A stretch of DNA of 64,000 nucleotides. It comes from a virus. The notes under the pieces were generated by a model. That model ran no database searches. It had not been told where the DNA came from and was given only the letters and a program-made list of their open reading frames with translations. The translations under genes were made by a program, and so were the position numbers. The stretch lies in the IMG/VR virus record IMGVR_UViG_3300032174_000004, positions 4,636 to 68,635 of that record. One strand, written 5' to 3'. Positions 3,159-63,311 of this stretch are shown here, piece after piece (within the stretch, counting starts at the first letter, position 1; each line of letters begins with the position of its first letter).

Positions 3159-3159
3159 A

Positions 3160-12956: not shown

Positions 12957-13132
12957 GGATGGCCCTTTGGGTTACGGTCTGTGATGGCGTGATTCGGAAC
13001 CAGCTTGACGTATGTCGTGCCGAGCCGCTCGAATCTCACACGTGAGCGTTTCGGGTTGCGCTTCAGGACTTGACCTGGCCACTTCATACGACCGGCCCAG
13101 CCGTCTGTATGAACCCAAACCGCATCACTCAT
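12953..13132 (-). CDS. 59-aa hypothetical protein (absent from ORF track)
   Basis: MSDAVWVHTDGWAGRMKW...; ATGA overlaps at both ends. Confidence 0.6.
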   Translation of the reverse strand: MSDAVWVHTDGWAGRMKWPGQVLKRNPKRSRVRFERLGTTYVKLVPNHAITDRNPKGHP

Positions 13133-13344
13133 GCTTGTTTCCTAGCCATAAGAAGCGCGGCCTGAGTGCGGTTGACAACCCCTAACACCCTGAAGATGGC
13201 GGTGACGTGAGTTTTCACTGTCTTTTCCGAGCGTCCAAGTTCGAGGGCTATCTCTCTGTTCGTCTTGCCCTGACAAATGCCAGCGAGCACTCGCTCTTCG
13301 TGAGGGGTGAAGGCTCTAGTCGGCTTGTTGCTGCTTGCGTTCAA
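13129..13344 (-). CDS. Stand-alone LuxR-type HTH regulator
   Basis: FTPHEERVL...GKTNREIALELGRSEKTVKTHVTAIFRVLGVVNRTQA; TTG start overlapping the upstream stop. Confidence 0.88.
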   Translation of the reverse strand: MNASSNKPTRAFTPHEERVLAGICQGKTNREIALELGRSEKTVKTHVTAIFRVLGVVNRTQAALLMARKQA

Positions 13345-13496
13345 TCCGTAAGATCCTCTGCGGAAAACAGCCAGCGCAAGAAAGCGTAGAAAAGGATCAA
13401 TCCGACGACGCCCAGCGCCAGCCAGAAATTCATCAAGCACGCAACCAGGAGAATCGCCGAGAGACCGCTGCGGATTATCTCTGCCGCTTTTTTCAT
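13341..13496 (-). CDS. 51-aa membrane protein, probably leaderless (absent from ORF track)
   Basis: MKKAAEIIRSGLSAILLVACLMNFWLALGVVGLILFYAFLRW; ATG 6 nt after the -10 box. Confidence 0.65.
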   Translation of the reverse strand: MKKAAEIIRSGLSAILLVACLMNFWLALGVVGLILFYAFLRWLFSAEDLTD

Positions 13497-23954: not shown

Positions 23955-24207
23955 GACTCAGGGCAAGCTGCGCGCGCGCTCGATCGCTCTGAAGCGCTGC
24001 CGCACAGTGAGCCCGACCTAACTTGGGTTCGAGCCAGCGTAGGAAACCGCGCTGCCAGCCATACAGCCGAAGATCGGCATCTTTGCCATCGCGGACAAGG
24101 CCAGCGAGAGTACTTACCGTTAATCCATATCTCCCAAAAAACGTCGCACTTGCCCAGAAATCGAGCCCTAATGCTACTTCTAAACCCCACGGCTGCCCTT
24201 GACTCAC
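23944..24207 (-). CDS. Small phage protein
   Basis: LGLDFWASATF...TVSTLAG...HCAAA; GTGA overlap with the HNH gene. Confidence 0.6.
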   Translation of the reverse strand: MSQGQPWGLEVALGLDFWASATFFGRYGLTVSTLAGLVRDGKDADLRLYGWQRGFLRWLEPKLGRAHCAAALQSDRARAQLALSLMP

Positions 24208-24755
24208 GATGTAGTCCTTCGTTTAGGCAGAAAACGTCCTGTGCGCATGTCTTTTAACATCGCAGGCCGGGGCCTGCTATTGTGCCTCTGCTCCAGCCGT
24301 GTAGCCCACCGACAGTTTCTGGGTTCGTAATTCCCATCATTGTCTTTCCTATCTATGGACAGACCTTCGGGCTTTTCTCCCATATCAGCTAGGAAGTTTT
24401 CAAACTTATCCCAGCGCCCACAAACCGAGATTCCGCGTCCACCGTAATTCTTGTATCCAATGTGTTTCGGATTAGTACAACGGGCATGAATGCCTTGCCA
24501 TACCGTATAGGTCTGACTTACACGAAGACCACCATTGGACTTTATTCGAGAGTGCCCATGGATAACTACGGCTTTGAGGAAATTCTCGCGCTTCAGACAT
24601 CCGCATGATGCAGTAACGCCGTTCCGCAAGTTGCCAGTGCGAATTAGACCAAACGATCCACAATCACAAACGCAAAAAGTATTGACTCCGAATGCAGCCA
24701 AAGTTGTCCATCGACCAACCTTGATCCCGATCGTGATAGGCTTCAGAGCAGACAT
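24204..24755 (-). CDS. HNH-type homing endonuclease
   Basis: CVCDCG...SCGC...W.GIHARC...YGGRGISVC...FLADMG...SIDRKDNDGNYEPRNCRWAT; start MSALKP with AGGAG SD. Confidence 0.9.
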   Translation of the reverse strand: MSALKPITIGIKVGRWTTLAAFGVNTFCVCDCGSFGLIRTGNLRNGVTASCGCLKRENFLKAVVIHGHSRIKSNGGLRVSQTYTVWQGIHARCTNPKHIGYKNYGGRGISVCGRWDKFENFLADMGEKPEGLSIDRKDNDGNYEPRNCRWATRLEQRHNSRPRPAMLKDMRTGRFLPKRRTTS

Positions 24756-24786
24756 GGCGTATCTCCTGAATAGATCGCTGTGTTTA

Positions 24787-24818
24787 GGGCGCGCGGTGTT
24801 ATAAGCGCCGCGCTGCCC
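24787..24818 (-). promoter_or_regulatory. Leader hairpin of the HNH gene
   Basis: GGGC-GCGCGGTG-TTATAAG-CGCCGCGC-T-GCCC inverted repeat upstream of the SD. Confidence 0.5.
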
Positions 24819-24865
24819 GCATCCTAATACATCGAGACCGAGACTGGCTTCGAGTGCGCAGGGGG

Positions 24866-25333
24866 TCACTGCGGCCACCCGTCAAGCGCACGCCGGCAGT
24901 CAGCCACTATTTTTTCGGCTTTGAGTTCGAACTCGTTGAGTTGGGGTCGGATGTCGGTAGCAATGAGACTATCGATTCCAGGCTCTGGCTGAGTTCCCCC
25001 GGCTGCGGTAGATCCACTACTGGCTTGGGCGGGAACTGCGGGCAGTTGGTGGGCTGCGGGCGGTTGGTGGCACAGGAGCACAGCAGTGCGCTGGCCAGTA
25101 ATAGCATTGTTGACCTTCGCCAAATCGATGTCATGTTTCTCATTTGCACGCTCCTGACCCTCCCGCCACTCCGACTCGATTTTGAGATTCTTCTCAAACT
25201 GCGCCTGAAAGTTCTTCATATCCTGAACTTTCACGATGTCCTTGCCGTAGTTGATCAACAACCAAATAGCCAGCCCCAAAGCTATGAGGATCACGATGTC
25301 CTTGACGAGCGCGATGATGGCGCTGGGCGTCAT
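24866..25333 (-). CDS. Rz-like inner-membrane spanin
   Basis: N-terminal TM plus coiled coil, in the lysis cassette. Confidence 0.75.
   Translation of the reverse strand: MTPSAIIALVKDIVILIALGLAIWLLINYGKDIVKVQDMKNFQAQFEKNLKIESEWREGQERANEKHDIDLAKVNNAITGQRTAVLLCHQPPAAHQLPAVPAQASSGSTAAGGTQPEPGIDSLIATDIRPQLNEFELKAEKIVADCRRALDGWPQ
24907..25107 (-). CDS. Rz1-like outer-membrane lipoprotein spanin embedded in Rz
   Basis: MLLLASALLCSC lipobox, Pro-rich, alternate frame inside Rz. Confidence 0.75.
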   Translation of the reverse strand: MLLLASALLCSCATNRPQPTNCPQFPPKPVVDLPQPGELSQSLESIVSLLPTSDPNSTSSNSKPKK

Positions 25334-25668: not shown

Positions 25669-26121
25669 TTATCCTACTAGTTGGTAATTCCACGCACCTG
25701 CATGCCCCGTCGCGGTGAGCGCTTGGCGACGTGGACTCAATCCTTCGGGTGCGACCGAAATATGAATCCATGCGCGACACTCAAATAGCACTTGGTCTAT
25801 AGGAAACTCCACCCGAGTCCTGAGCATATCGAAGACGACGCTGAGGTCCAATCCTATTGGGATGAAATCGGCGGCGAGGCCTGCCAGATGCGCGCTGCCA
25901 TGGGCACCCCCGACTGCCGCATTGACCTTGGGAGAGCGGAACCCGCTGTTGATGTGCATCGGGACATTGAGTAGGGAGCGTACGGGCTCCAGCAGTTCCT
26001 GACAGAGGCGCTTCAGGTTCAGGACCTGCTCTGTGGTCGGCGTATTGTCGATGCCTTGCCGTAGAGCGACCTCTGAAAAGGTTAGCTCCTCCAGAGAAAA
26101 GTGAGGCGTCAATGGGTTCAT
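25669..26121 (-). CDS. Endolysin, peptidase M15 family
   Basis: LTPHFSLEEL...INSGFRS..VN.AVGG...SAH..G.AAD...WIHIS. Confidence 0.92.
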   Translation of the reverse strand: MNPLTPHFSLEELTFSEVALRQGIDNTPTTEQVLNLKRLCQELLEPVRSLLNVPMHINSGFRSPKVNAAVGGAHGSAHLAGLAADFIPIGLDLSVVFDMLRTRVEFPIDQVLFECRAWIHISVAPEGLSPRRQALTATGHAGAWNYQLVG

Positions 26122-29500: not shown

Positions 29501-32500
29501 CCTGCTCCTTAGTCATTCCCTTATTTTGCAGATCTGGTGCAGCAGACTGCCCATTTCTCTCCGCATATAACCAGTACTTGCCGTCTTCATCGCGCGAATA
29601 GACGATGCGATCGATATGCTGCGCGAGGTTATATCGGTCTGCCTGCTGATCTCCGGTAGTCCAGGAGATGCGATCGAATCCGTTCTCCGCCGCGTGCCTG
29701 ATCATTCGCTTCATGGCCAACATCGGCCAGGAGGTTTTGAAGGGAGCGGACGGTACCCCGACTTCACCCTCAGTAAGCGCCTTTATTTCGTTTTGTGCAT
29801 CCACCCATTCTTGCTTTTGCTCAGCAGTGACTGACTTGCCATGAAAGTCCCAGAGAAGTGCCTGTATTTCGTCACGCCGCTTTACCAGCTCCGCAAGGCG
29901 CGCTTCCTTCTCTGGCCGGTATCCCTGCTTGCGGCCTACCTGATGCCAGTCCGATTGAATCTCTTCGAGGTGTAGAACCTTCTTCCCTTCAGAGTCGGTG
30001 CGCTCGTTGAAGCGGACGTGGGCGAGGATGTTGGGCTCGCGCCAGTGCCCAGATTTATAGATAGGCTGGAGTGCACCATGATGCTGGGTGGGCAATTGCA
30101 GTAAAAGCTCGCGGTAGTTCCCCCCGCCAGGTAGCGTGTACTCACCGTACTGCGTTCCGTCATTCTCAAGGTGAGTCCAGCCTTCCGGGCCTGCTGCACG
30201 CCGAGTGCGCTCATCTCCCACGCGAGTAGAGATGTTGTTTAGCTCCTCGACATCGGAGCGAAGAGAATCTGGTAGCCGCTCCATATCGTCCGTGTTATAG
30301 CTATAGTGACGCGATTCAATGCCGTCACCGTCCTCTCCACGTACTCCGATGTGATCTAAATATCCCTCATCAGTGAATGTGATTTGATGGCCTTGCGCTC
30401 GGAGCTTTTCAGCTAGTTGTATCTGGGCGCGCTCGTCTTCTGTTTGTTCAGCAGAATCGATGCGTTCCCCATGAACCGTTTCCTGCAGCTCAAGCCGATT
30501 CGCGCGCACGTAGTCAGCGAGTTCTTCCTTGGTGACTGGACCTTTATGGTCCTTTAGCCAGTGGTCTAAATTTAGCCACTCAAGTTCCTCAGGCTTGACT
30601 CCAGACTGCTTCTTGAGAGTTGCTAGCCATTGTTCAGCGGAGGCCTTCCCCTGCTTGCTCTCACTGATGGCGCGCTCAACGGGCGAGTAGAACATCGGCG
30701 CGCGCTGGGAGCGTGGGGGTTCGCCAGGAAGCGTTCCAGCGGTCCCACCCTCAAGCGCAGTGCGCGCCTGCTGGATCAGTCCCGCGATCGCCTTGTCATC
30801 GTAGAAGGGTTTCCCCCTCATCTTAGAGAAGAATGCCTTCACGGCGCGGACAGCGCGCTTCCAGTACGGAAGGACTGGCTTGTCGATGGGCTGGCCGGAG
30901 AGATGCTGACCGGCCGCATAGGCAATCACTTCCTCTGCAGCAGCGCGGCGTTGGTCAACGTCACTGACATCGAGCCCGTTCCTCTGGGCCGCCGCCTGCA
31001 CCCGCTCCGGCATATCTCGGTTGATCCCATCCATGACTGCGTTATATGTTGGCCTATCCATCGCCAGTCGGAGACCGTGATGACCCACCGCCTCGTGCCA
31101 GAGATTCTCGCGCACCTCACGCTCACTCCCGTTGTTGCCGGCAATGAGATGGATGCGATCTGCGCCCGGATCGTAGACGGCGCCTGTCAGGCGTTCCGCG
31201 CCCTGCTGTTCAACGAGGCTCTTGATAGATTGTGGAAGAGTGGACACATCTTGGTGCACCTCGACGTGCGGAAAACCGGCGACGAGGTTAGCTTCTCGTA
31301 TCGTTTGGTGAACGATGCGCTGGACGTGAGCCAGCGGGAGGCCTGACGTCGTCCCCTCGGTCCTACGGTACTTCGATTCCTTTCCCCATTTGTCAACGAG
31401 GAGCACCGACTTGGGCTGGCCAGGTCCCTCGCTAAGACGTACTGCCTGTTTACCGGCTGCTCGAGCTTCATCGACCGCTTTGTCTACTGCGTCTGGATTT
31501 CCGGCATATACATCTTGGGCCGGCTCGTAGATATCGTCGGAAGCTAGCTTGAGCCGCTTTATCTCATGGTCTTGACCAGACTGAGTGAATTGGCGCGCGA
31601 ACTCCTTCTCTGGTGTATAGAAGCCGCCACCAGCGTTGCGAACATTTTCCCCGCGGTAAAGCGTCTCAGTCTTACGGTGGGAAAACTTCGGCTCTACTTC
31701 CTTTTCGGAGCCGGCGGGAGGGTGACCTTGGTTATCTTGCCGCCCTGCTTCGCGAGCTCGGATAGCCGATCCGGGAGGCGCCTGGCCGCGCGCAGCGCGC
31801 TCTCCTTGGGCTTCTCTTCTCGCTTTGTGGGCACTGAGGGCGGCATCGGCTTCTTGAGCGTTCTTACCTACGCCGTAGGATACTCCGAATCCCTTCAGTT
31901 CAACGACTCGGCCGTCAGGCATCGTCACTTCGATCTGTGCGCCCTTCAGGTGCTCCTGAATGCGGCTCATCAGCTCGTGCGCTTCCGTCTCAGTATGGGT
32001 CTGCGCGGCGAACTCATCCCCTGAGATGTGGTAGGCCTCGTCGGTATGGCGCGCGAGCGCGGTCCCAATGGCTTTCAGCAGCATGTCCCCCGACTCATGG
32101 CCCATCTCATCGTTGACCCATTTCAGCGAGTCAACGTCGATCGCCACCTGGTGGGGAAGCTTCTCGGCTTCCTGATAGGCCCGACGGTTTGGGATGCCAG
32201 TGAGCTCGTGGGTCAGCAGCGCAGCGCGCAATTGATCTGGGGTCATCTCTTTGACCCGACCTCGAAGCGCCGTATCTACGCGCCGGTCAACGCGTTCCGC
32301 TCCAGGAACTGCGCGGTTTGTGTTTCCTGAATCCAGCCACTCCTTGAACTTCTCAGTAGGCATCTCGGCGATTGAGCCCAAGCCCCGCCACCCCTTCGGG
32401 TAATTTGCGCGATAGACCGCCTCGGCTTCCTGTTGAGAGTCAGCACCCAGAACTGATTTGTGCTCGTCCAGCTTGCCCGTAGCTGGATCGATTTGATTGA

Positions 32501-34898
32501 TGACGAAGACTTTACCGGTATCTGGCTTGCCAGTGAGAAAAGCATCCACTGCATCCCCATCCTTGCCCTCAGTCCCCTTCACATAGCCATACGTGTGGGA
32601 CATTTCCCTGGACCATGGCTTGCCATCCGGGCCAATACCTGAGCGCGTAGAGCCTTTGGGGTTCTCGATCGCGACCTTCATTCCCGCGAAATCGACAACG
32701 CCCTTTTTGTACGTCCCGGCTTGCTTCTGCCCTTCGGTGGGCGCCGTATTGGTCTGCGCCTCAGCGCGCGCTAGGGCTTCTTGGAAGCTTTCTTCTTGGC
32801 CTTGCGGTGCGCCTTGAGCCTTTGCAGGTTCTTCAGTACCGCCGCCTGGAGTTTGCTGTTTTTCGGATCCACGGGCGATTATGGACTCAAGCTCACCGCG
32901 AACGCGAGCGATCGTCTCTGGGTGATCGTCATTCCAGCTATCGAGCGTCTGGACGGTTGCCGCGCGATCGTGATCGCTTGCCCGGCTCGCCAGCAAGGTG
33001 AGATCTAGCGCCCCTTCTGGCTGCTTATCCAGATCCGGTACCGCTTCCCGCAGCTCCGCATGCCTTTGGTTCATGGCGGTGCGCTCGTCGTGCACCTGCG
33101 TCATGAAGTCGATCATCGACTGCTCACGGGCCTTGAGCGGCTGCCCAGCGAGCGCCTTGTCGACCGCATCGTGCACCTGGCTCTCCGTAAGCCCCTTCGG
33201 GCGATCTGGCCACCAGTCGGCGCGTGGGAGCCACTTGGTGCGGCCTACCACCTCATCCGTGGTGGCGTCGCGGATGACCCGGCCCCCTTCCTCCGCCCAT
33301 CCAGTCTCATCCTTCATGGCGGTTAGGCCATCTCGGAGGTCCTGGTCGGTAGCGAGACGGTGCTCTGGAGTGCCGTCTTGAGGGCCCTGTGGATGCACCA
33401 CGCCGTCACTGACTTCCTGGTTCAGCTGTGTTAAGCGACGCCGGCCAGCGGGGAGGAAGATCGGCTCATTCAAGTCATTGCGCTTGATCAGCCCCAGCTT
33501 CTCCAGCATGTCGGCTTGCGGAGGGGTAATCGACTTATCCTTCAAGGCTAGTAGCGCGGCATGCTCGGCAGAACTTGGTTGCGACCCTTGGGAGCTGCTG
33601 GTAGCAGCTTCGGGCGCTTCGGAAGATTTCTCGGCGCTTTCAGTAGGTTGAGTCTCAGTCGAGGTGGGGTGGACAGTGGTAGCACCTTCACCTGCCTCAG
33701 TGTGTGTCTGTAGCACAGTTGGCTTCGGCGTCCGCGACGTTGCCGCATGGAAGGCTCCCATTGGGGCTCCTACCACGCTTCCGACCAGCCCCGACCACGC
33801 GACCTGCTTGAGCGCCTCATCGAGCGGCAAATGCTGGTTGAGCACCCCTGCATCGATCCCCTGCTGGAGAGCATTCACCACACTTTGTGTAACGCCCTGA
33901 GCCGCCGCAGTGCCGGCGACTTTGCCCACTCCAGTCTGTGCGAGCTTGTCACCCACCACACCGCCGATGATTTTGTTGGCAAGAGGCGTGTTCTCAACGA
34001 TCTTGAGGACTGGAACCTCCGGTACGCTCGAGGCGAGGGTAGACAGCACTGCGTAGGTGCTCGCTGTATCGTGATCTAGTCCCTTATTACGTGCCGCCGC
34101 GTACTCATTCGGCGCGATATCTGCGGCCATGACGGCGGCACCACCGACGCCCCCTGTTGCTACTGTCGCACCGACCCCAGCCAAGATGTCTGGCGACATG
34201 GTTGCGGCATCAAATACGAGCGCCTTGAGCGAATGGTCATCCATGTGCGGCGCGTAAATCTCCTGGACCTGCTGCGCCGTGAGTCGCCGCTTCGTGCCAG
34301 CCTCCATCTGCGCGCTGCCAGTCTGTAGCCGATCGCGCTGCTTCGACTTGAATTGCTCAAGCTGCTCCTGGGACTGATTCACGTATGTTGGCCAGTCGCG
34401 AGTAAACGTGTCCGGCCGAATCCCAAGGTGCTCAGCGGCGCTTTGGACCTCCGGCATATCAGTCAGCGCCGCCCCTTGCTTCTGAGCGTCTCGGACCGCT
34501 TGTGGGAGCACGGTGGCCTGCCAGAACTTCTTGCGGGCGTCATCGTAGGCGCTGTGGCCTAGGTACTCCTGAGCCCCCGCGATCTTCGTCTCAATGCCAG
34601 CACCGATGGCAGTCGGGATCCCGCGGGCCACATCGCTCCAGGAAGCCGGTGGATATTCCCGCTTGGCACTGACCGTGACCTCAGGCATCTGCGCCTGGTC
34701 GGTGACGTCCTGCATGCGGGAAGCCGTCGTGTCCGCCGCAGACGGGCTATCCATCTGGTCCAATGGATTCCCAGCTGGATGGTCGTCGAGGTCGTCTAGC
34801 GGATTCCGTTGAGGTGTAGGCGCGCTCGCCAGCGCCGACATAGGAAGTGCAGGGGCGCTTGCTGCGTCATCAAGGGCGTCAAGTGGATTCGCTGCCAT
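26577..34898 (-). CDS. Giant polyvalent ejection protein (InPase, GGDEF, ART-like, metallopeptidase, LPD-type domains)
   Basis: IENPKGS.RSG...YGY..GTEGKDGDAVD; ELTGIPNRR...IDVDSLKWVND.MGH.SGD...SGDEF; LYRGE...FYTP...ARQF; HEAVGH; EEIQSDWHQ; last gene of the ejection-protein series. Confidence 0.85.
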   Translation of the reverse strand: MAANPLDALDDAASAPALPMSALASAPTPQRNPLDDLDDHPAGNPLDQMDSPSAADTTASRMQDVTDQAQMPEVTVSAKREYPPASWSDVARGIPTAIGAGIETKIAGAQEYLGHSAYDDARKKFWQATVLPQAVRDAQKQGAALTDMPEVQSAAEHLGIRPDTFTRDWPTYVNQSQEQLEQFKSKQRDRLQTGSAQMEAGTKRRLTAQQVQEIYAPHMDDHSLKALVFDAATMSPDILAGVGATVATGGVGGAAVMAADIAPNEYAAARNKGLDHDTASTYAVLSTLASSVPEVPVLKIVENTPLANKIIGGVVGDKLAQTGVGKVAGTAAAQGVTQSVVNALQQGIDAGVLNQHLPLDEALKQVAWSGLVGSVVGAPMGAFHAATSRTPKPTVLQTHTEAGEGATTVHPTSTETQPTESAEKSSEAPEAATSSSQGSQPSSAEHAALLALKDKSITPPQADMLEKLGLIKRNDLNEPIFLPAGRRRLTQLNQEVSDGVVHPQGPQDGTPEHRLATDQDLRDGLTAMKDETGWAEEGGRVIRDATTDEVVGRTKWLPRADWWPDRPKGLTESQVHDAVDKALAGQPLKAREQSMIDFMTQVHDERTAMNQRHAELREAVPDLDKQPEGALDLTLLASRASDHDRAATVQTLDSWNDDHPETIARVRGELESIIARGSEKQQTPGGGTEEPAKAQGAPQGQEESFQEALARAEAQTNTAPTEGQKQAGTYKKGVVDFAGMKVAIENPKGSTRSGIGPDGKPWSREMSHTYGYVKGTEGKDGDAVDAFLTGKPDTGKVFVINQIDPATGKLDEHKSVLGADSQQEAEAVYRANYPKGWRGLGSIAEMPTEKFKEWLDSGNTNRAVPGAERVDRRVDTALRGRVKEMTPDQLRAALLTHELTGIPNRRAYQEAEKLPHQVAIDVDSLKWVNDEMGHESGDMLLKAIGTALARHTDEAYHISGDEFAAQTHTETEAHELMSRIQEHLKGAQIEVTMPDGRVVELKGFGVSYGVGKNAQEADAALSAHKARREAQGERAARGQAPPGSAIRAREAGRQDNQGHPPAGSEKEVEPKFSHRKTETLYRGENVRNAGGGFYTPEKEFARQFTQSGQDHEIKRLKLASDDIYEPAQDVYAGNPDAVDKAVDEARAAGKQAVRLSEGPGQPKSVLLVDKWGKESKYRRTEGTTSGLPLAHVQRIVHQTIREANLVAGFPHVEVHQDVSTLPQSIKSLVEQQGAERLTGAVYDPGADRIHLIAGNNGSEREVRENLWHEAVGHHGLRLAMDRPTYNAVMDGINRDMPERVQAAAQRNGLDVSDVDQRRAAAEEVIAYAAGQHLSGQPIDKPVLPYWKRAVRAVKAFFSKMRGKPFYDDKAIAGLIQQARTALEGGTAGTLPGEPPRSQRAPMFYSPVERAISESKQGKASAEQWLATLKKQSGVKPEELEWLNLDHWLKDHKGPVTKEELADYVRANRLELQETVHGERIDSAEQTEDERAQIQLAEKLRAQGHQITFTDEGYLDHIGVRGEDGDGIESRHYSYNTDDMERLPDSLRSDVEELNNISTRVGDERTRRAAGPEGWTHLENDGTQYGEYTLPGGGNYRELLLQLPTQHHGALQPIYKSGHWREPNILAHVRFNERTDSEGKKVLHLEEIQSDWHQVGRKQGYRPEKEARLAELVKRRDEIQALLWDFHGKSVTAEQKQEWVDAQNEIKALTEGEVGVPSAPFKTSWPMLAMKRMIRHAAENGFDRISWTTGDQQADRYNLAQHIDRIVYSRDEDGKYWLYAERNGQSAAPDLQNKGMTKEQVGEYVGQELAEKMERGEGQITSIYPNEKFPERSLSGLDLHVGGSGMKGFYDSILPRETDKLIKKYGAKVGRTEVIGPDPTEAALSPNAPSDTAIPVHGFDITEPLRQAALSQGFPMFSRRQQELPLEEQREPGAYPIVRRAVSAVAEAKGVRDLRKLINPVGMSAESRQVAQIAREALGKLAHETVQTQEALERFSREIDKTPIPEQLAMMDAIERGVEQPNPEMQPVADAMRKLLDDWRGKVQGLGEGYLDNFIENYFPHYWRFPDEAQRMVASIMGRRPLRGPASFLKMRTIPSIKEGMDAGLTPLTTNPLIMTLLKTREMQRFVTGVTLMRRFKEDGLAKFLPAGHSMPDGWGPINDNIAKVRSWSEEENGFIERGQYIMPIDAARVINNHVSASALRDFAPAQIFRRGANALNAMQLGFSAFHLGFTTLDAMISKNAQALERLAHGEVGKAAASFVEGATPVGAVMNVRRGYKLLQAYSNPAGATPDMQRMVQMLTMAGGRAHMDRYYQAAEGVSPFRGVGVRSLANDIRQALTAPQDKIQNLGRALGHFPIEYANKLWKETQEIWKTTPKMEVPVEMAMRVVRASTSWIMEHLVPMQKLGVFSDLAADHLRRNPTQDPNDRAAAMQRIWDSVDNRLGEMVYDNLFWNRTMKDSLHLGIRAVGWNVGTVREIGGAPIDMVKAVDKAIRTGKVSADDLGHRIPYVLAMAGTTALYSAIYQYMATGQGPQELKDYFFPRTGGTTNYGTPERVSLPSYVKDVYEYSQRPGQTIVNKLNPIFSLIGNLYSNQDFFGNPISDPEASYWHQKLQQAQFAAHEMTPFSLQGRQQMQATEQPSGFGASVKKALPMIGVTPAPGYITSPEQLERRDRLEQDQKYTGELKYKIKKALMSGDKATAAELTKEYVESVKRMNQTKATVGQDKAKAAAARRKTSISMRQAGYPATADLVASLPLEPDRQARDYFAQTIKENVA

Positions 34899-36665: not shown

Positions 36666-37682
36666 TCAGCTCCCTAGATCGCCCGATGAGAAGTCGATGG
36701 GCGCCGGCTGCGTTTGGTCGATGACATCTTGCGCAGCGACCTGTGATTGAGCGTTGGCGAGCGCTGTATCAGGCCCTGAAGAACTCCCACCGCCGCCGCC
36801 CATCTGCTGCCAAAGTCCAGCACCTGCCGCTGCTCCCCCAAGAGCCGCGCTTCCCATGTTGCTCGGCGGCCCATACAGGCTCGTGTTCGTCTGAACTCCC
36901 TTCGAAGCGGCAATCGCCTGTATGAGCGGCTGAAGCTGCGTCGTCGACCAGTTCTGGTTGGTCAGGAAGGTGTTCAGGTTGAAGTTCAACTGCTGCTGAT
37001 TCAGCGACTGCGCAAGGCCCCCCGTGGCCATCAACTGCTGGATCTGCTCACCGTTGAGCCGACTGACATCCCCGCCGACCTGAGCAAGGGCCTCCCCTGC
37101 TGCGATCTTGGTCTTGTTGTCGTTGAAAAAGGCGTTCTGCGCGTTCGTGTAAGCCGCCGAGTAGGCATTGCCTATATCCGATGCGAGCGCCTGGGAATGC
37201 GAGGTCTCAAGCGATTGCTCCTCGAGCGCCGAGCGATCGCCACCGAAAGCCCCTGCCTTCGAGTTCTCCAGCGCCGACTTCTGCGTCGCGTAGTTGATGT
37301 TCTCCTGGTTGAGAACCGGAGTGAGGGTCGCCTGTACATACGGATCCATGTACGACTGCAGGTTCTGCGAGTTGTACTGCTTGATGCCCGCGATATCGTT
37401 GGCCCCCTGAGTCAGCAGGCTTGAGGCTTGCGTATTCAGCGCGCTCTCAGGAGAAGCCTGCGCAGTGGCCTGCTGCTGGCCCTGCGACTCCGGCGCCACC
37501 ACCGCCCCGCCATAAGGCGTGTACGGCGTGTTGGCGATCGTCTCGGCTTTCGCTAGCGCGTCATTGCTCGCAGCCTGCGTTTCAGGTGACTCGGAAGTCG
37601 TCGAGTGGCCCGCAGCATTCTTGCTGCTCATGTACTGGCCACCGGCGGAGATTACGGCCCCCGCAACCGCGCCCCATGGCGT
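36666..37682 (-). CDS. DNA pilot / ejection protein, probable ACG start
   Basis: YTPYGG.VVAP...YMDPY...GAFGGDRS; in-frame extension PWGAVAGAVISAGGQY upstream of ATG 37631. Confidence 0.75.
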   Translation of the reverse strand, partial: TPWGAVAGAVISAGGQYMSSKNAAGHSTTSESPETQAASNDALAKAETIANTPYTPYGGAVVAPESQGQQQATAQASPESALNTQASSLLTQGANDIAGIKQYNSQNLQSYMDPYVQATLTPVLNQENINYATQKSALENSKAGAFGGDRSALEEQSLETSHSQALASDIGNAYSAAYTNAQNAFFNDNKTKIAAGEALAQVGGDVSRLNGEQIQQLMATGGLAQSLNQQQLNFNLNTFLTNQNWSTTQLQPLIQAIAASKGVQTNTSLYGPPSNMGSAALGGAAAGAGLWQQMGGGGGSSSGPDTALANAQSQVAAQDVIDQTQPAPIDFSSGDLGS

Positions 37683-37688
37683 TAAGTC

Positions 37689-37723
37689 CCTGATTCTATG
37701 GTGGAATATACCATCGAATCAGG
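37689..37723 (-). promoter_or_regulatory. Hairpin sequestering the pilot-gene SD
   Basis: CCTGATTC-G-ATGGT...ACCAT-A-GAATCAGG; contains the upstream TGA stop and part of the AGGGA SD. Confidence 0.6.
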
Positions 37724-38369
37724 CCCCCATTTGTCTTGGAGTCGCATCGCGTTCCCCATCGCCACACCACAGTGGCTTCAGTCTCTGGTCGCGTTTCACA
37801 CAGACAATGCAGGTGATTCTCTCGACCGTTGACCCGTTGGAGACCCAATGTGTTTCATTATTATTGAAAGAGTACACAGTGCCAGGAGCACACTCGAAAG
37901 CGCCGTCATCGTAGCAAAACGTCTGCCCTGGTGCGCTCTTGAGCTGTACGGCAATTTTCTCATACGTGGTTGCGTGCCAACCGTGATCGATATGCGGTTT
38001 TACTTCACCGCCCGGCGGGATGCGCGTGATCAATACACCGCCTAGCCGCTCCGCCTCAAAGTGCCGCATGAGATCGAAGATAAGCGTGCGCAGGTTGGGA
38101 AGGAGGTCAATCGCCGAGTACCACACGCTCTCATGAGGCTCGCCAACGAAATGAACGACAACCTCATTGGGATGAGGATATTCCTTGCGAAGCGCGTGGA
38201 GTTCGTCAATCGCGCGGTAACGAATCCAGATATCCGATACACCGTTGTGCGCTGGCGCGTAGCCTTCAGTCCGTAGGGTATAGCGATTCCACAGCTCTGG
38301 GTGCGCATCGAGCTCCGCGACGACCGATGATACGTCCAGCCCATACACAAGAGGGCGCAGGTACTTCAC
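37719..38369 (-). CDS. Aspartyl/asparaginyl beta-hydroxylase-like 2OG-Fe(II) oxygenase
   Basis: LGGVLITRIPPGGEVKPHID...FNNNETHWVSN...ERI. Confidence 0.85.
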   Translation of the reverse strand: MKYLRPLVYGLDVSSVVAELDAHPELWNRYTLRTEGYAPAHNGVSDIWIRYRAIDELHALRKEYPHPNEVVVHFVGEPHESVWYSAIDLLPNLRTLIFDLMRHFEAERLGGVLITRIPPGGEVKPHIDHGWHATTYEKIAVQLKSAPGQTFCYDDGAFECAPGTVYSFNNNETHWVSNGSTVERITCIVCVKRDQRLKPLWCGDGERDATPRQMGA

Positions 38370-38881
38370 CGTACGTTCCCCATCATTCGCTGGATCAGGC
38401 GTCGGCAGACAGCGGGATCTGGGTCGAGCTTCTCAAAGTCGGCTTGCACATTGAGTTGCCGCAATAGGGCGTGCCGAGGAGCATCGAAGGGAATATGCCC
38501 TTCAAAGAGATGATCGTGAATGATTTCGGGATGGTGGAAGATTTCGCGCCAGTCCACATGGAAGCCATCAATTCTGGCGAGGTCGTCTTCCCAGTTGTGA
38601 TCAAGTGGCGGGAGCCCCGCTCGACGCAAGGAAAGGTCTATCTCGCGCATGTCCCGATGCAAGATCACTTTGCGAGCGGGATGCCGCTTGAGCCAGTCCG
38701 GGAAGAGAGCGATGCCCGTGTCTGCAAGCCCTAGGATGCGATCGCAAGGTATCGTGTCCAGATCCTCAAGGTCATGCGTGATACACAGCTCGTGCAGACA
38801 CAGCGAGAGCTCAGTGGTGCACCAGTTACTACACCATGCGGTTCCTGACCGAGGCGCTCCTATGATCATGAACGTAATCAC
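38366..38881 (-). CDS. Sulfotransferase-like P-loop protein
   Basis: FMIIGAPRSGTAW...LHE...KVILHRD. Confidence 0.75.
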   Translation of the reverse strand: MITFMIIGAPRSGTAWCSNWCTTELSLCLHELCITHDLEDLDTIPCDRILGLADTGIALFPDWLKRHPARKVILHRDMREIDLSLRRAGLPPLDHNWEDDLARIDGFHVDWREIFHHPEIIHDHLFEGHIPFDAPRHALLRQLNVQADFEKLDPDPAVCRRLIQRMMGNVR

Positions 38882-39381
38882 GCGCTGGCCGCCTTCGTGA
38901 GGGTCGGTAGCGGCATGCGCAGGAAGGTATGGCGAGAGGGCAGGTAGCTTGAGCGCTTGGCGATGACCTCATTCAACTCTGCCGGCGTCAGCATCTGCGA
39001 TCCCAGGAAGCCGACTAGCTTGTTGCTGTCGAGGAATCGCTCCAGTGCGTCGAGTAGCTGCTCAGGGACTCGCGTCGTACGATAGGCCGGCGTCACTGCC
39101 AACCAAGTCTCAGCCAGCACTACAGTCTCGCACCATGGCGTGCGAATCGGCGCCACGCCTATGCTGCCGAGAAGCCGTCCTTGGAGATCCGCGACGATCA
39201 CGAAGGCGTGTCGCAGCGTGGTAGTCACGTACTCCAGGAGCTTCTGCTCATCGAGTTTGCCGATTTCCCTAGCCGGTGTTTCAGAGTAGCCGGCCTTGAT
39301 CAGGCGGACCAAATTCACGCTGTCCATCGCCGTTGCTGGCCTGATGACTACCGCATCCTTCTTCTTCTCTCGCATCTTCAT
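38878..39381 (-). CDS. GNAT-fold acetyltransferase-like protein
   Basis: IRPATAMD...LLGSIG...WLAVTPAYR. Confidence 0.75.
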   Translation of the reverse strand: MKMREKKKDAVVIRPATAMDSVNLVRLIKAGYSETPAREIGKLDEQKLLEYVTTTLRHAFVIVADLQGRLLGSIGVAPIRTPWCETVVLAETWLAVTPAYRTTRVPEQLLDALERFLDSNKLVGFLGSQMLTPAELNEVIAKRSSYLPSRHTFLRMPLPTLTKAASA

Positions 39382-47622: not shown

Positions 47623-49056
47623 TCACCACAAATAACTTTTTACAACCACAACGCCTCCACCACCAGTCCCACCGGCAAGCGCCGTAGCCGGCTGAGTCGG
47701 ATTCCCAAAATTAGCGGTATTTATCGCTAAACCTCCACCGCCGCCACCGCCTCCATAGCCGCCGCCGTTACCGCCGCCGCCACCTATTACGGGGCCACCC
47801 CCTCCATAGCCGCCGCCGCCGCCGCCGCCGCCGCCGGAATAAGTGTTAGCTGCGGTAGAAGTCCCAGCACTCCCTGTTCCGCCAGTAGCGGGGCCTCCGT
47901 TGCCGGCAAAATTCGCTACATTTACTCCACCGATTCCGCCCGCGTTGACCCCTGAAGTGCCGCCACTACTAGCCGACCCGACACCACCAGGGCTGCCGTT
48001 TGTGCCTCCGCCCGCACCAGCATGAGTAGTACTGCCGCCCGGAGGATAAGGACCCACACCAGTACTTCCTCCCGGACCGCCAGCGCCGCCCGTTTCTGAA
48101 ACAATGGTCCCACTCAAAGTTGTAGTTGCCGTTCCGCCCGCGCCCCCAGGAGGAGTAAATGTTTGGCCGCCGCCGCCACCTTGCCCACCATGAGCGACGA
48201 CATAGGTACCAAACGAGCTATTCCCACCATCAGCGCCATCAAACCCTTGTTGTGAAAAACCCGCAGTTGTATGAGCCTGACCGCCAGCGCCCCCAGCCCC
48301 GACAGTAATCGTGACAGTAGCGGGAACCGCAGCTCCAGAAACACCCGTCACACTAATATAGCCGCCGCCGCCGCCGCCCGTCGCACTCCCTGGCGTACCG
48401 TTAAGGTAATATGTTTCGCCAGATCCGCCACCTCCTCCTCCACCAATGACTGATGGAATATCAATGATGAGAGTTCCTGTTGGTTTCTGCCACGTGTACA
48501 CGCCTGGAACATTGTAGACAGCTTGGATAGATCCGCTCTGCGACAGGATGTTAGAAGCCGCCCCCTGCGCCCCGTTTGAGGCCACAGGCACGACGAAATA
48601 TCCATATGAGTTGTGAGCTGTTAATGCCGTGTCGATGTACGTCATCGTCGGAGCATTTACGCTCGCCAGGAAGACGTAGGCTCCTTGGTTTGTCGCCCGA
48701 TAGATGGAGTAAGTCGAGACCCCTCCCGCAGTGAGGGCATCAAGCGTCCACGTCAATTGCACCCCTGGCCCAGCGACTACGGCCGCTGAAAGAACGGGAG
48801 CGCCGAATGTTTCAGTGCCCACCGTCAAAACTGGCGCAGTCGGTGCGGCAATCGTCTCTGGCGATGGACGGTAGAGCGCAACGGGGTCTTCAACTTTGGG
48901 GAGGAATTCTTGTGGATGCTTATCCTCCCAGTAATCTGGGTGAACGCGCATATTCGGAAAGCGACCATCGAATACGGCGTCCTTCAACAAAAACTTCATT
49001 CCGCTACGCCCACAGATACACCATGCTCTCGAGCCTTTGGCGTATTTGTTAGCCAT
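47623..49056 (-). CDS. Neck-associated domain fused to Fn3 and Gly-rich domains
   Basis: YAKGSRAWCICGRSG...WEDKHPQ...DPVAL; Fn3; polyglycine. Confidence 0.75.
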   Translation of the reverse strand: MANKYAKGSRAWCICGRSGMKFLLKDAVFDGRFPNMRVHPDYWEDKHPQEFLPKVEDPVALYRPSPETIAAPTAPVLTVGTETFGAPVLSAAVVAGPGVQLTWTLDALTAGGVSTYSIYRATNQGAYVFLASVNAPTMTYIDTALTAHNSYGYFVVPVASNGAQGAASNILSQSGSIQAVYNVPGVYTWQKPTGTLIIDIPSVIGGGGGGGSGETYYLNGTPGSATGGGGGGYISVTGVSGAAVPATVTITVGAGGAGGQAHTTAGFSQQGFDGADGGNSSFGTYVVAHGGQGGGGGQTFTPPGGAGGTATTTLSGTIVSETGGAGGPGGSTGVGPYPPGGSTTHAGAGGGTNGSPGGVGSASSGGTSGVNAGGIGGVNVANFAGNGGPATGGTGSAGTSTAANTYSGGGGGGGGGYGGGGPVIGGGGGNGGGYGGGGGGGGLAINTANFGNPTQPATALAGGTGGGGVVVVKSYLW

Positions 49057-49546
49057 CGAGGTGGCTCCATGAACGCCCGAATTTAATATCGGCTACTGTT
49101 TGCGGCGAGATCCCGTACTCTTTGGCGATAAGAGTCGACTGAATTCCTCGCGCGATCTGCTTACGGATGCGACGTATATCACGCTCAGTGAGGATTGCCC
49201 TGAAGTGTTGCTCGCCCCATGGCGCAAGCCCCATTACCGCTTTGTGGTCAGTATTTCCCTTCTTGGTGGTCCATTCCAAGTTGAGAACGGTGCAATTCGT
49301 TTTCACGCCATCTTTATGATTTACCTCTGGCAACCCTAAAGGATTCGGTAAGTAAGTAAGGGCCACTAGGCGATGAGCGTACATCTGAATCGACCCTAGC
49401 ACTGGGTGCTTCATCCAAATGCGTAGATACCCGCGCCGCGTTAGGTGCCGAGCAAGCCATCTCCCCTTCGTCTTGCACTTCACCAATGACCAAACGCGGC
49501 CATCTTCAGTGATGAAGTATCCGGGGAAGTAAGGAATCTCGCGCAT
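49049..49546 (-). CDS. NUMOD4-HNH endonuclease
   Basis: IPYFPGYFITEDGRVWS...AHRLVA...VNHKDGVKTNC...NLEW.T. Confidence 0.9.
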   Translation of the reverse strand: MREIPYFPGYFITEDGRVWSLVKCKTKGRWLARHLTRRGYLRIWMKHPVLGSIQMYAHRLVALTYLPNPLGLPEVNHKDGVKTNCTVLNLEWTTKKGNTDHKAVMGLAPWGEQHFRAILTERDIRRIRKQIARGIQSTLIAKEYGISPQTVADIKFGRSWSHLDG

Positions 49547-49572
49547 CACGCACCCTTGATCAGACCACCCAC

Positions 49573-49953
49573 TTAACAGCTTACCGCACGCCCGTTCGTG
49601 ATGAAGCCATGCCACACCTCCTCTCGATTGTCAGGAGTGTCCGGCTTGTTTACGTCCTTGCTGCGCCACGTGAGGATGGAGGGCGTAAGAGTCGGTTTAT
49701 CCTCATTCCCGTCCCAATTCCACGTAGCCCTGTCGGCCGGTGGATCGCTGCCGGGTCCCTTGATCGGGATTCCGTGCAATTCACCGCCCTCGCACGGCAA
49801 TACGACCCACAGCTGGCGCCACCGTGGACCTCCTTCAATGAAGCACCAGCCAATGTGGAATAGACCAGGGACTGGAATTCCCTCTCTCCAGAAGTGGGCC
49901 TCCATCGTCTTTACCAAGTCGATAGAGCACTTACATGGCCGCTGTTTGCACAT
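49573..49953 (-). CDS. DUF6527-like protein
   Basis: WNWDGNEDKPTLTPSIL...WHGFITNG. Confidence 0.75.
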   Translation of the reverse strand: MCKQRPCKCSIDLVKTMEAHFWREGIPVPGLFHIGWCFIEGGPRWRQLWVVLPCEGGELHGIPIKGPGSDPPADRATWNWDGNEDKPTLTPSILTWRSKDVNKPDTPDNREEVWHGFITNGRAVSC

Positions 49954-60647: not shown

Positions 60648-63311
60648 CTAAGCCGCCTTCTTCATGGGCTGCTTGGCCATCGTGCGCCGCTGTGTCTTCT
60701 TGGCCAGCAGTGACTCCTTCGCCTCAGCCTGCTTGTGCTTCAGGCCCTGGCGGTGGGTGTCGACAGCCTGCAGGAGTGACTGGGTGTGCGCGGCCTGCTT
60801 ATGGCGATGCTGGACGAGGCCATCGGCGTGCTTGCGCAGGATGCTGGCGGAGGTCTCCTCGTCGATCTGGCGCATGCGGACGCGGTGCTCTTCCTCAAGC
60901 TGCCGTAGCCGCTGTTCATGCTCCAACTCGCGCTGCTTGTGATCCGCCACGAATGTATGCGTGTCGCGCTGGATCTTCGCTTGCGTCTCGGCTTCCTTGT
61001 TCTTGATGCCCGCAGCCGTCTTCGCCTGGTCGGCGGCAATCTGCGCTTGGGCTTCCTGCTGCGGAGGCGCTTGACCCGACTGCGGCCCACCTCCCTGCAC
61101 AGATGCTTGTGATCCCGGCACGGGGGGAGGGACTGGCGGGAGGTTCTGCGCCGCCAGGATGGAGACCGCCATTTCGATCTTGGGGTCCATCGGCTGGTTC
61201 GGCCCGTACAAGTCAGTGGGCGGCAGTGGGATCTGGTGGGACTGCTGCATGCCAGCCGAAACTTGCTCAAACTGCTGCAGCGCCAAGTGCTCGCGGATGT
61301 GCGCCATCAGCGCGCTGTGCACGACCTGGTACTGATCAGGCGGCAACGTGTTCTGAGCGATCTGGTCCTGACGGTCGTGGAGCAGGTTGTGCAGGTCATG
61401 CCGCTGGCCCGGGAATGCGCGCACTCCTTTGCCCGTCATCATCAGCATGTTCTCGCCTACCGGATCCATGTAGGTCGGTGCTGGCATCTCCGGGGCGATC
61501 TTCTGCCAGTCTGGGACCTTGAGTGCTTTCAGGAAGCGCACATGCGCTTCGATCGTCTTTTCAGGCCCGTAGAGCTGCGGCGCCTTCTCCACCAGCTCGA
61601 GAACGGCTTGCGCCATCGCGATGCGCTGCACGTCCGAGATGATGTTCGGGTCCGCAACCGGTACGAAGCTCGTGTGATCCCCGAAGTCCGCCTTCATGGC
61701 AACCTGCGCCTGGCCATCCATGTGGTACGGGTACTGCTTGTCGGGCGCGAAGTCGTGGATGAGCTCGCGCAGCATGCGGAACTCTTCCCGGGCAGCGGCG
61801 AAGATGCGCTTGTGTACCGCCGTGAAGAGCTTCATCGACTGTTCGATGAGTGCCAGCGTGGTACCAACGGGCGCCTTGTTGTCCGCCTGCCCGACCAGTA
61901 CCTCAGTCAGTGAGGCGAAGCGGCGCGCATCCGAGACCATCGCTTGGAACAATTGCACCAACGCGGGTGAGGGCTCCTTGCTCGGGGGGGTGTAGAACCC
62001 CTTGGCTAGCTCCTCAGCTGTCGCGTCGATGTCAATCCATTTGCCGGGCTGGATAGCAAGACTGCCCCCCTTCTTCGGACCATCCTTTGCCCGAAATCCT
62101 CCCTGGACAGTCGCCATAAGTGCGCTATCCAGGAGTGCGCGCGCGCTGCCGCCGATGGCTTCAGCGAGCGATCCAATGACATGCAGGAAGCCCCACCCGT
62201 AAAAGCCCAGCCCCGGCAAGAACTTGTAGTGGGCGAACCAGACGCGCTTCTTGCGCTTCTCGTCCTGCTGGCGCCAGTTGCGGCGTACCGCGAGGATCTC
62301 CTGGCTCGTCTTGTCGCAGATCACGATGTAGGGCAGCTCAAGGCCACCCTGGTCCTGCTCATCCACGCCTTCTGGCAGGTTCAGGTCGATGTGGTACTCA
62401 AGGATGTCGAACAGCTCGTCCTCATCGTGCAGCGAGCGCACCCGGCGGTCCGAAATGTCGTCGATCTTCTGCCCGCGGTACTGCTCATCCTCGGAGTTCA
62501 GCGGCGGCCGCGGGAGGTTGAGCTCGATGAACTCCCCCAGCGCCATCGCCTTGGCGATCTCGCTCTTCGTCATCTGGTACTGATGGCAGTACCGAGAGCA
62601 GTTCTCGAGGTCCCGGGCGAAATAGGGAGCGACGAAGTCTTCGGCCTTCACGTACCGAGCGCGCGGGAGCTGGTCGCGTGGGTCGAGCCACGTCTTGCTA
62701 AAGAGGCTCCCCGCAGTCGGTAGATAGAACAGCGACTGGTCCTTGTCAGCGTAGTACCCCGTATCGATGACTGTGAGGTAGTAGTTCATATACTGAGCGG
62801 CGCGCTCAGCACTGTCCTCAATGTCCTCAGTCACATCGCCCAGCGGGTCGCCCTTCACGGGGCCTGTAGGCGGGAAGAACTCCTGGATGGCGTTGCTACT
62901 GAACTGGACGCAGGCCTCGGCGATCACGGGGTGCTGCATTGAGGCCGCGCCGGGGAAGGGCAGACGGCTCATCTCAAGCTTCTCGATGCCGAGGAGCGAT
63001 AAAGCAGAACGGGTGAGGTTCTCCCACTCCTTGCGTGAGTCGAGGTCTACCCGGTGGTACTCGGTGAGTCGCTGAGCCAGATAGTTCCTCTGGCTGGTCG
63101 ACATGTACTCGGCGAGGTTCTCCGAGAAAGCACCGCTGGTCCCGAAGTTCTGCGGGCTGGTCTGCTGGATACCCGTAATTTGGCTGTCATCCGGCGGCCC
63201 GAACAGGTCCACCATCTCCGTCCCATCCGGATGATGGGTGAAATTGGCGCCTGCTCCCTGAAACTTTACAGGGTGATTCGGCCGTAATTCGATGACTTCG
63301 CTGGGTGGCAC
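60648..63311 (-). CDS. Portal protein
   Basis: DLDSRKEW...PFPGA....HP.IAEA...GSLFSK...HYKFLPGLGFYG.G...APVGTTLAL.EQ...DPNIIS. Confidence 0.92.
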   Translation of the reverse strand: MPPSEVIELRPNHPVKFQGAGANFTHHPDGTEMVDLFGPPDDSQITGIQQTSPQNFGTSGAFSENLAEYMSTSQRNYLAQRLTEYHRVDLDSRKEWENLTRSALSLLGIEKLEMSRLPFPGAASMQHPVIAEACVQFSSNAIQEFFPPTGPVKGDPLGDVTEDIEDSAERAAQYMNYYLTVIDTGYYADKDQSLFYLPTAGSLFSKTWLDPRDQLPRARYVKAEDFVAPYFARDLENCSRYCHQYQMTKSEIAKAMALGEFIELNLPRPPLNSEDEQYRGQKIDDISDRRVRSLHDEDELFDILEYHIDLNLPEGVDEQDQGGLELPYIVICDKTSQEILAVRRNWRQQDEKRKKRVWFAHYKFLPGLGFYGWGFLHVIGSLAEAIGGSARALLDSALMATVQGGFRAKDGPKKGGSLAIQPGKWIDIDATAEELAKGFYTPPSKEPSPALVQLFQAMVSDARRFASLTEVLVGQADNKAPVGTTLALIEQSMKLFTAVHKRIFAAAREEFRMLRELIHDFAPDKQYPYHMDGQAQVAMKADFGDHTSFVPVADPNIISDVQRIAMAQAVLELVEKAPQLYGPEKTIEAHVRFLKALKVPDWQKIAPEMPAPTYMDPVGENMLMMTGKGVRAFPGQRHDLHNLLHDRQDQIAQNTLPPDQYQVVHSALMAHIREHLALQQFEQVSAGMQQSHQIPLPPTDLYGPNQPMDPKIEMAVSILAAQNLPPVPPPVPGSQASVQGGGPQSGQAPPQQEAQAQIAADQAKTAAGIKNKEAETQAKIQRDTHTFVADHKQRELEHEQRLRQLEEEHRVRMRQIDEETSASILRKHADGLVQHRHKQAAHTQSLLQAVDTHRQGLKHKQAEAKESLLAKKTQRRTMAKQPMKKAA

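Follow-up and report, generated by a model that had tools for sequence, protein, structure and literature searches.

The polyvalent gene and its two-domain cassette

The window analysed here is a 64,000-nucleotide stretch of virus DNA, bases 4636-68635 of the 68,635-base IMG/VR record IMGVR_UViG_3300032174_000004, which is complete according to CheckV; it represents most of one complete 68.6-kb tailed-phage genome. The largest gene of this phage (26577..34898, minus strand) encodes a protein in which an inorganic-pyrophosphatase-like domain (InPase) stands beside a domain of the GGDEF family, the family of diguanylate cyclases, and this protein is the subject of the present analysis. Its open reading frame (ORF) is open over 2773 amino acids (aa), the database copy starts 19 codons later, and residue i of the protein corresponds to window base 34898-3(i-1). 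All coordinates given below are window positions, and the features that carry them lie on the minus strand. The protein is of the polyvalent type: several unrelated effector domains are united in a very large polypeptide, and the gene lies among structural genes.

The initial annotation of the stretch, made from the DNA sequence, had placed the InPase-like domain next to the GGDEF domain and had quoted three motifs of the latter. This central observation is confirmed, since both Pfam families score above their cut-offs and the motifs ELTGIPNRR (32181-32207, mapped to the sequence), IDVDSLKWVNDEMGHESGD (32085..32141) and SGDEF (32010..32024) are in place. The InPase comes first and the GGDEF domain second, with ~40 residues between the two Pfam domains. 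Together they would form a two-domain cassette of aa ~715-1045, with low-complexity linkers on either side (~aa 660-715 and 1045-1075).

The InPase domain

The Pfam family InPase (PF18823) matches aa 723-855 (32334-32732) with an E-value of 4.7e-51 and 172.6 bits against a cut-off of 26.8, and the match spans positions 2-134 of the 135 in the model. The core motifs of the domain are IENPKGS (32649-32669), DGDAVDAF (32538-32561) and LDEHK (32457-32471). Relatives were compared in an alignment of 13 rows (A1), where the window fragment (aa 700-1060) is joined by 12 of 17 segments in which the InPase likewise comes first; P0005, P0016, P0093 and the truncated proteins P0168 and P0193 were excluded. 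Over these rows D780 and D785 are invariant, position 782 is either D or E, and D811-E812-x-K814 is invariant.

The domain keeps a YGY...DGDxVD core which aligns to the pyrophosphatase Ppa of E. coli, and which we take to be the Tyr and Asp-x-Asp-x-x-Asp core of family I pyrophosphatases. When A1 was compared with Ppa by hhalign, HTYGYVKGTEGKDGDAVDAFLT aligned to Ppa residues 54-75, a match of 22 columns only (probability 73%, E 3.1e-5). The domain is also strongly homologous to the C-terminal domain of a solved phage portal protein (PDB 9b41 chain L, ‘gp19 Portal’; E 9.5e-26, and 8.9e-38 with the profile). This portal was the only match when phmmer was run with the InPase against solved structures, a search which found no classical pyrophosphatase, and it was again the only match of the InPase part in the profile search with A1. 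Based on these sequence comparisons, the domain is predicted to be an inorganic pyrophosphatase of the family I type.

The GGDEF domain

Concerning the second domain, the Pfam family GGDEF (PF00990) matches aa 899-1026 (31821-32204) with an E-value of 1.9e-11 and 44.4 bits against a cut-off of 23.8; the six-frame search gave 48.9 bits. The Pfam match is the core of a module which is kept in relatives as aa 879-1043 (31770..32264). The domain is compact, its 128 residues spanning 151 positions of the Pfam model, and its active-site loop SGDEF occupies aa 959-963. The motif IDVDSLKWVNDEMGHESGD carries D921, N929 and D938, presumably the metal-binding and guanine-binding positions of PleD, and the alignments to structure chains from a search with aa 880-1060 are consistent with this equivalence. 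These three residues, together with K1025 and R1034, are all present in the window protein and align with cyclase chains. Among PDB sequences the same segment has 48 matches at E<=1, which mostly bear diguanylate-cyclase or GGDEF names and end with an unrelated anti-sigma factor in the last row.

Structure prediction had been proposed in the initial annotation as a check of the GGDEF fold, and the fold was recovered. The AlphaFold model of aa 700-1060, built from A1, has a mean per-residue confidence (pLDDT) of 89.4, a predicted template-modelling score (pTM) of 0.50 and two confident domains. A low-confidence linker separates them (aa 869-875, 32274..32294; residues 170-176 of the fragment, pLDDT <50). 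The InPase part is strand-rich and confident, and the fold-match lists of both Foldseek and VIA-align are filled by the GGDEF part. The Foldseek matches listed are GGDEF-domain proteins, nearly all named diguanylate cyclases. When 48,161 chains were compared by VIA-align, the top 32 rows were all GGDEF domains (Z 10.9-16.4), and the best rows match solved diguanylate cyclases at Z 14-16.4 with a root-mean-square deviation (rmsd) of 1.8-2.3 Å over 127-139 residues. Below them stand GTP cyclohydrolase III (Z 10.0), the class III adenylyl and guanylyl cyclases (<=9.6), Y-family polymerases and the minimal CRISPR polymerase mCpol (Z 8.4). Since GGDEF domains rank above these other palm enzymes, the domain is a GGDEF domain proper and not another palm enzyme. 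It is real and apparently a competent cyclase domain, with the activity predicted from sequence and model.

A complex prediction for two copies of aa 700-1060 scored 0.27 against a mark of 0.42 and was not used either way on dimerisation; the description of the cyclase as ‘oligomeric’ in the initial annotation is not supported.

Conservation in the SGDEF clade

The relatives of this GGDEF domain, here called the SGDEF clade, were collected with HMMER from 50%-identity cluster representatives. The search with aa 880-1060 returned 18,702 proteins at E<=1e-3, 1,243 at <=1e-10 and 254 at <=1e-30. The best 150 matches range from 185 to 5,613 aa and are mostly longer than 1,000 aa; a word-indexed search limited to 1,525-4,853 aa gave 79 proteins. 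One of these 79 is the window's own protein, deposited with a later start (P0002), and this copy was left out of all counts. The Pfam content of the clade relatives is of the polyvalent type and includes InPase, LPD1, LPD38, ART-PolyVal, RadC, MuF_C, ddrB-ParB and helicase or methylase modules; some relatives carry the automatic label ‘diguanylate cyclase’. One clade member is found in a 1.9-Mb contig of Candidatus Manganitrophus and is presumably part of a prophage.

Conservation was counted over 213 copies of the GGDEF domain in 205 proteins. N929 and G960 are kept in all copies, D921 in 212, E962 in 211, D961 in 210, K1025 in 209 and R1034 in 205. Position 938 is D in 193 copies, N in 16, T in 2 and S in 1. 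All eight residues are kept together in 184/213 copies, as they are in the window protein. SGDEF is the loop of 158 copies and GGDEF that of 32, and at the first loop position 167 copies have S and 36 have G. SGDEF is therefore the norm of the clade. The replacement of Asp938 by Asn, Thr or Ser in a minority of sequences hints at an altered nucleotide specificity there.

Tandem pairs of GGDEF domains are found in 8/204 proteins, and both copies are intact in six of the eight; such modules fit an enzyme which needs two domains. One tandem protein, P0082 (1628 aa), has Thr at position 938 in both copies. Looking at single members of the clade, P0056 (2316 aa) has a 2H phosphoesterase (2_5_RNA_ligase2, E 2.1e-11) just upstream of its GGDEF domain (residues 22-137 and 254-386), and this phosphoesterase also has a sub-threshold match to the anti-CBASS protein Acb1. 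The P0056 polyprotein may both degrade and make cyclic nucleotides.

The initial annotation had further assigned the motif RHTD (32040..32051) as an RxxD product-inhibition site (I-site). The motif is present at the canonical spacing, five residues before SGDEF, but it is not a family feature, and its role as an I-site is doubtful. RxxD is found at this position in 5/213 clade copies; with R in 21/213 and D in 38/213 at the two columns, ~4/213 would be expected by chance. In the closest relatives the site is SHTD, SHSD or DETS, with S or D/E in place of R. Because the count is near chance and the relatives differ, the RHTD of the window is most simply explained as a coincidence, and it is probably due to chance. 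Judged by its sequences, the clade as a whole appears to be without product inhibition, which would suit an effector better than a regulated signalling enzyme.

Pairing of InPase and GGDEF

A survey of the adjacency of the two domains, also proposed in the initial annotation, gave a divided answer: the association is far from random, but most modules do without it. The pairing was counted in the 204 other proteins with a GGDEF module. An InPase is present in 74 of them and lies within 120 residues of the GGDEF domain in 57 (27 InPase-first and 30 GGDEF-first), whereas it is farther away in 17. If the InPase is placed at random within each protein, 11.9 of the 74 would be adjacent, so that the observed number is about five-fold higher, an enrichment judged against random placement alone.

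The arrangement was also followed on a FastTree phylogeny of the domain copies, with the states InPase-first (28, the copy of the window included), GGDEF-first (30) and no adjacent InPase (109); 46 copies with short flanks were left unscored. The tree implies at least 25 state changes, compared with 50-55 in five of 200 shuffles, and this number is rough because the tree is built on ~170 columns. Based on the excess of adjacency and on the state changes, the pairing is not due to chance placement, and it was gained or rearranged on repeated occasions. It is nevertheless facultative, as most GGDEF modules have no adjacent InPase.

Regions outside the cassette

The stretch which follows the cassette, aa 1076-1175 (31374..31673), had been described as ART-like from residues such as LYRGE (31647-31661). 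No support for this identity was found. Pfam gave no match for aa 1060-1239 even at E<=10, with ART-PolyVal (PF18760) included, and phmmer with aa 1076-1175 recovered nothing but the protein itself from the 206 proteins collected. The model of this stretch has pLDDT <50 and no confident fold. LYRGE has an R where the ART domains of polyvalent proteins have the H of an H-Y-D active site, as described in text passages of PMC5512222. The ART-like identity is thus unsupported rather than disproved.

The metallopeptidase (MPTase) suggested further downstream was borne out by modelling. The domain covers aa 1176-1361 (30816..31373), as delimited by the model and by structure matches, and its motif HEAVGH (31080-31097) is of the form HEXXXH, not HEXXH. 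The model of aa 1065-1440, which is limited by an alignment of no more than three rows, reaches pLDDT 65-85 in aa 1176-1361 and shows a helix and three strands followed by the HEAVGH helix (residues 195-215 of the fragment). Zincin peptidases are on top of the structure matches of this region, with Z from 9.3 down to ~6, and no Pfam model matched it. Peptidases with HEXXXH are described in polyvalent proteins in the text of Iyer et al. 2017 (PMC5512222).

At the other end of the protein, aa 1-53 (34740-34898) are rich in Pro, Ala and Asp and contain three NPLD(A/D/Q)(L/M)D repeats; this N-terminus could be a packaging or ejection signal.

Genomic context

The polyvalent gene belongs to a minus-strand block of structural and lysis genes which runs from ~63,300 down to 24,200. 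The portal gene (60648..63311) is at the head of the block and is followed by the major head protein (55743-56645); several tail-fibre-like and virion proteins are also found in it. The upstream neighbour of the polyvalent gene (36666..37631) has a weak match to the PHROG ‘DNA ejection protein’ phrog_4287 (E 1.8e-7), and the downstream gene is an endolysin (Peptidase_M15_3, 25669..26121). Along this strand the gene is thus preceded by the portal, head, tail-fibre and ejection-protein-like genes and followed by the endolysin. The left third of the window contains replication and recombination genes (helicases, RecT, YqaJ, RusA) and the small terminase subunit.

The portal is 31-38% identical to the portals of podoviruses which infect Roseobacter, Pelagibacter, Caulobacter and cyanobacteria, and the nearest GGDEF-bearing contigs are in genome bins labelled Methylococcaceae and Gammaproteobacteria. 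No near-identical DNA was found in the phage collection, and no tRNA genes were found in the window. As evidence of a host, the portal relatives and the bin labels are too weak, and no host is therefore named.

Several other genes of the window were recorded. Just upstream of the ejection-protein-like gene, the structural operon contains three small enzyme-like genes (37719-39381), which resemble an Asp/Arg beta-hydroxylase (E 6e-5), a PHROG ‘hydrolase’ (phrog_10855, E 4.3e-38) and a GNAT protein; a GNAT gene is at the matching place in phage CRP-901 too. Three HNH endonuclease genes are present (49049-49615, 24204-24878 and 2712-3368), one of them inserted among tail genes. A regulator of 103 aa with a LuxR/GerE-type helix-turn-helix (13129-13440) lies between two helicase genes, and an 889-aa ORF in the structural block (50709-53378) has no PHROG match at E<=1e-5.

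Comparison with known systems

Polyvalent proteins with such domains have been described before. According to the text passages of Iyer et al. 2017 (PMC5512222), GGDEF is an infrequent domain of polyvalent proteins, for which interference with host nucleotide signalling was proposed; the InPase domain is defined there as phage-specific and probably packaged, and is suggested to clear inorganic pyrophosphate (PPi) from nucleotidyl-transfer reactions. The same passages argue that polyvalent proteins are packaged and delivered at invasion. Since both domains are described there, the present finding is an instance of a published class. One of the published examples, WP_004096050.1 of Acetonema longum, is similarly a giant multi-effector polypeptide of phage origin with GGDEF and MPTase domains, but, as far as the passages describe it, it has an SNF2/MTase/ART set which Pfam does not find in the window protein. 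The InPase–GGDEF pairing, the SGDEF norm, the missing I-site and the tandem copies go beyond the text passages of PMC5512222; its figures or supplement may show the pairing. A literature search, with most subscription journals outside its reach, found no paper with an experimental test of a GGDEF domain from a polyvalent protein.

The cellular diguanylate cyclases PleD, WspR, DgcB, SiaD, DgcR and DgcZ share the fold (Z 14-16) and the catalytic and guanine-binding residues. As in the stalk-type cyclases, a helix precedes the domain, and the top VIA-align row is the DgcB structure of a coiled coil plus GGDEF. In contrast to the cellular enzymes, the domain of the window and its clade has no sensory or receiver domain, carries SGDEF in place of GG[DE]EF, is shorter, ends in a conserved GxRAxRGExPPG tail, has no conserved I-site and is set in a polyprotein of the virion type.

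Among cultured phages, the closest relatives are GGDEF-like proteins of Yuavirus (Pseudomonas) and Vojvodinavirus (Bordetella), which are 33-38% identical and annotated as diguanylate cyclases. These differ from the window protein in being stand-alone proteins of ~150 aa, encoded in the early or replication region and with no fused InPase. Passages of PMC8471281 report that Vojvodinavirus lysogens are hyper-biofilm formers, without an enzyme assay. In the siphoviruses CN2 (Bordetella) and Epa38 (Pseudomonas) the stand-alone gene is flanked by an exonuclease or DNA-binding gene on one side and by further early genes on the other; in CN2 a gene for a ‘putative pyrophosphatase’ is found separately, ~3.6 kb upstream of it.

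Concerning delivery, T4 Alt, the N4 virion RNA polymerase and P1 DarB are named as virion-delivered enzymes in the text of PMC5512222. They are similar in concept, as head-packaged enzymes which are injected with the DNA and act before phage gene expression. They act on proteins or nucleic acids, whereas the window protein, with a delivery that is inferred, would make a diffusible second messenger. The portal of PDB 9b41 resembles the window protein in its InPase, which is fused there to a portal and not to a cyclase.

Proposed mechanism

We propose that the 2773-aa protein is a packaged polyvalent protein which brings into the host an InPase–GGDEF cassette, with a cyclase of the phage-specific SGDEF clade, and that this cassette makes cyclic di-GMP (c-di-GMP) with local removal of PPi; we put the probability of this reading as a whole at about 50%. 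Packaging and injection are suggested by the gene context and by the published concept of polyvalent proteins, and by this analogy the protein is probably carried in the virus particle. A single polypeptide of unrelated effector domains would thus be packaged in the capsid and enter the host with the DNA. The zincin-like HEXXXH peptidase may cut the polyprotein into working units and so release the cassette. In the GTP-containing cytoplasm two GGDEF domains would pair; either two copies of the protein would supply one each, or the conserved helix which precedes the domain would bring them together. Each pair would convert 2 GTP to c-di-GMP and 2 PPi, and the tethered InPase would hydrolyse the PPi locally and render the reaction irreversible. 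Because the clade appears to have no RxxD product-inhibition site, the output would be uncapped by feedback.

The rise in c-di-GMP would reprogramme the host ahead of phage gene expression. Diguanylate cyclases turn over at 0.01-1 per second, a few copies of such a protein are expected per virion, and one molecule in a 1-fL cell corresponds to ~1.7 nM. By a rough estimate from these figures, c-di-GMP could reach tens to hundreds of nanomolar within minutes if host phosphodiesterases lag, which is within the range of c-di-GMP receptors. The effects on motility, the cell cycle and nucleotide-signal defences which the initial annotation had attached to such a rise are speculation.

Alternative explanations

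A number of results weigh against the proposed mechanism. Among them, users of c-di-GMP encoded by the phage itself were not found in the window (no Rfam riboswitch family at the gathering score, no PilZ and no EAL). In the most serious alternative an active cyclase is delivered, but the InPase works independently as an effector of its own. It would remove PPi from early transcription or replication, or have a nucleotide as its substrate, as proposed by Iyer et al., and the adjacency would reflect cassette inheritance and domain shuffling. No fixed interface between the two domains is predicted; they are joined by a disordered, flexible linker, as the pTM of 0.50 also reflects. PPi removal is not required for the cyclase, since most of the scorable modules (109/167) have no adjacent InPase, and the 17 co-occurrences at more than 120 residues point the same way. 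In the 50,697 phage records, 504 matched the cassette fragment and none covered at least 80% of it, so that no record of a cultured phage has the pair; 84 records match the GGDEF part, and the InPase is common without GGDEF (hundreds of records), which argues that it has uses of its own, as does its fusion to a portal. The alignment to Ppa is short, and host cells are already rich in pyrophosphatase. Set against this are the five-fold excess of adjacency, the occurrence of both domain orders and the state changes on the domain tree, by which the pairing is not one inherited accident. We regard an independent InPase as possible though rather doubtful, and PPi coupling within the proposed mechanism as optional at best.

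The second alternative concerns delivery: the protein may be made late and act where infection is already under way, such as by an increase of c-di-GMP ahead of lysis, or it may be a structural or assembly protein with enzymes for morphogenesis. No similarity to known ejection proteins was found. The C-terminal 874 aa have no match among the phage records, and BLASTP against gp31 and gp32 of CRP-901, a relative by its portal, gave nothing significant at the corresponding position. The Yuavirus and Vojvodinavirus relatives are small, non-structural and located in early or replication regions. Nevertheless, the gene is in the structural operon near an ejection-protein-like gene, an InPase domain is found in a solved portal inside a capsid, and the architecture is that of phage polyvalent proteins (giant size, MPTase, InPase and low-complexity linkers), for which packaging is argued in the text of PMC5512222. 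A protein which is not injected therefore seems unlikely.

Concerning the first residue of the loop, passages of PMC3974145 and PMC8079147 describe natural SGDEF cyclases, ECA3270 and MbaA respectively, which can be active and make c-di-GMP. The former source also counts against the proposed activity, as Ser at the first motif residue abolishes the activity of the AGDEF cyclase VCA0965. Since VCA0965 is dead with Ser though natural SGDEF enzymes are active, the effect of the first residue depends on context. It is very unlikely that the GGDEF domain has another role, such as making a hybrid or adenine-containing dinucleotide or linear pppGpG, binding nucleotides or serving as a scaffold: its compactness, the Ser of its loop, the changed guanine-contacting Asp of some copies (both copies of P0082 among them) and the degenerate GGDEF domains with other functions known from passages of PMC3974145 would fit such a role, but the residues mapped to catalysis and guanine binding are all kept by the window protein and by most clade copies, the fold matches cyclases at rmsd ~2 Å, and SGDEF enzymes can make c-di-GMP.

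Implications for phage biology

Compared with the 2017 prediction, the additions are the conserved SGDEF loop, the loss of the product-inhibition site, the frequent tether to a pyrophosphatase in either order and the tandem modules. Tentatively, the whole SGDEF clade may be viewed as a feedback-free, virion-delivered c-di-GMP synthase, often joined to a pyrophosphatase of its own in one cassette or doubled in tandem, which puts the host in a high-c-di-GMP state. If this is true, very few injected molecules would be enough to flood the cell with c-di-GMP in the minutes after the DNA has entered, and the protein would be the first example of a virus shown to inject an enzyme that makes a second messenger. 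The high-c-di-GMP host would have its motility and its pilus or flagellar receptors switched off and its matrix switched on, or, in hosts of the alphaproteobacterial type, would enter the cell cycle; this state would keep competing phages out or prepare the cell for replication. If the enzyme is active and injected, a global second messenger would be under the control of the phage already in the first seconds of infection, without gene expression, and the biology of c-di-GMP (motility, surface structures, biofilm and cell cycle) would be linked to phage entry and to competition between phages.

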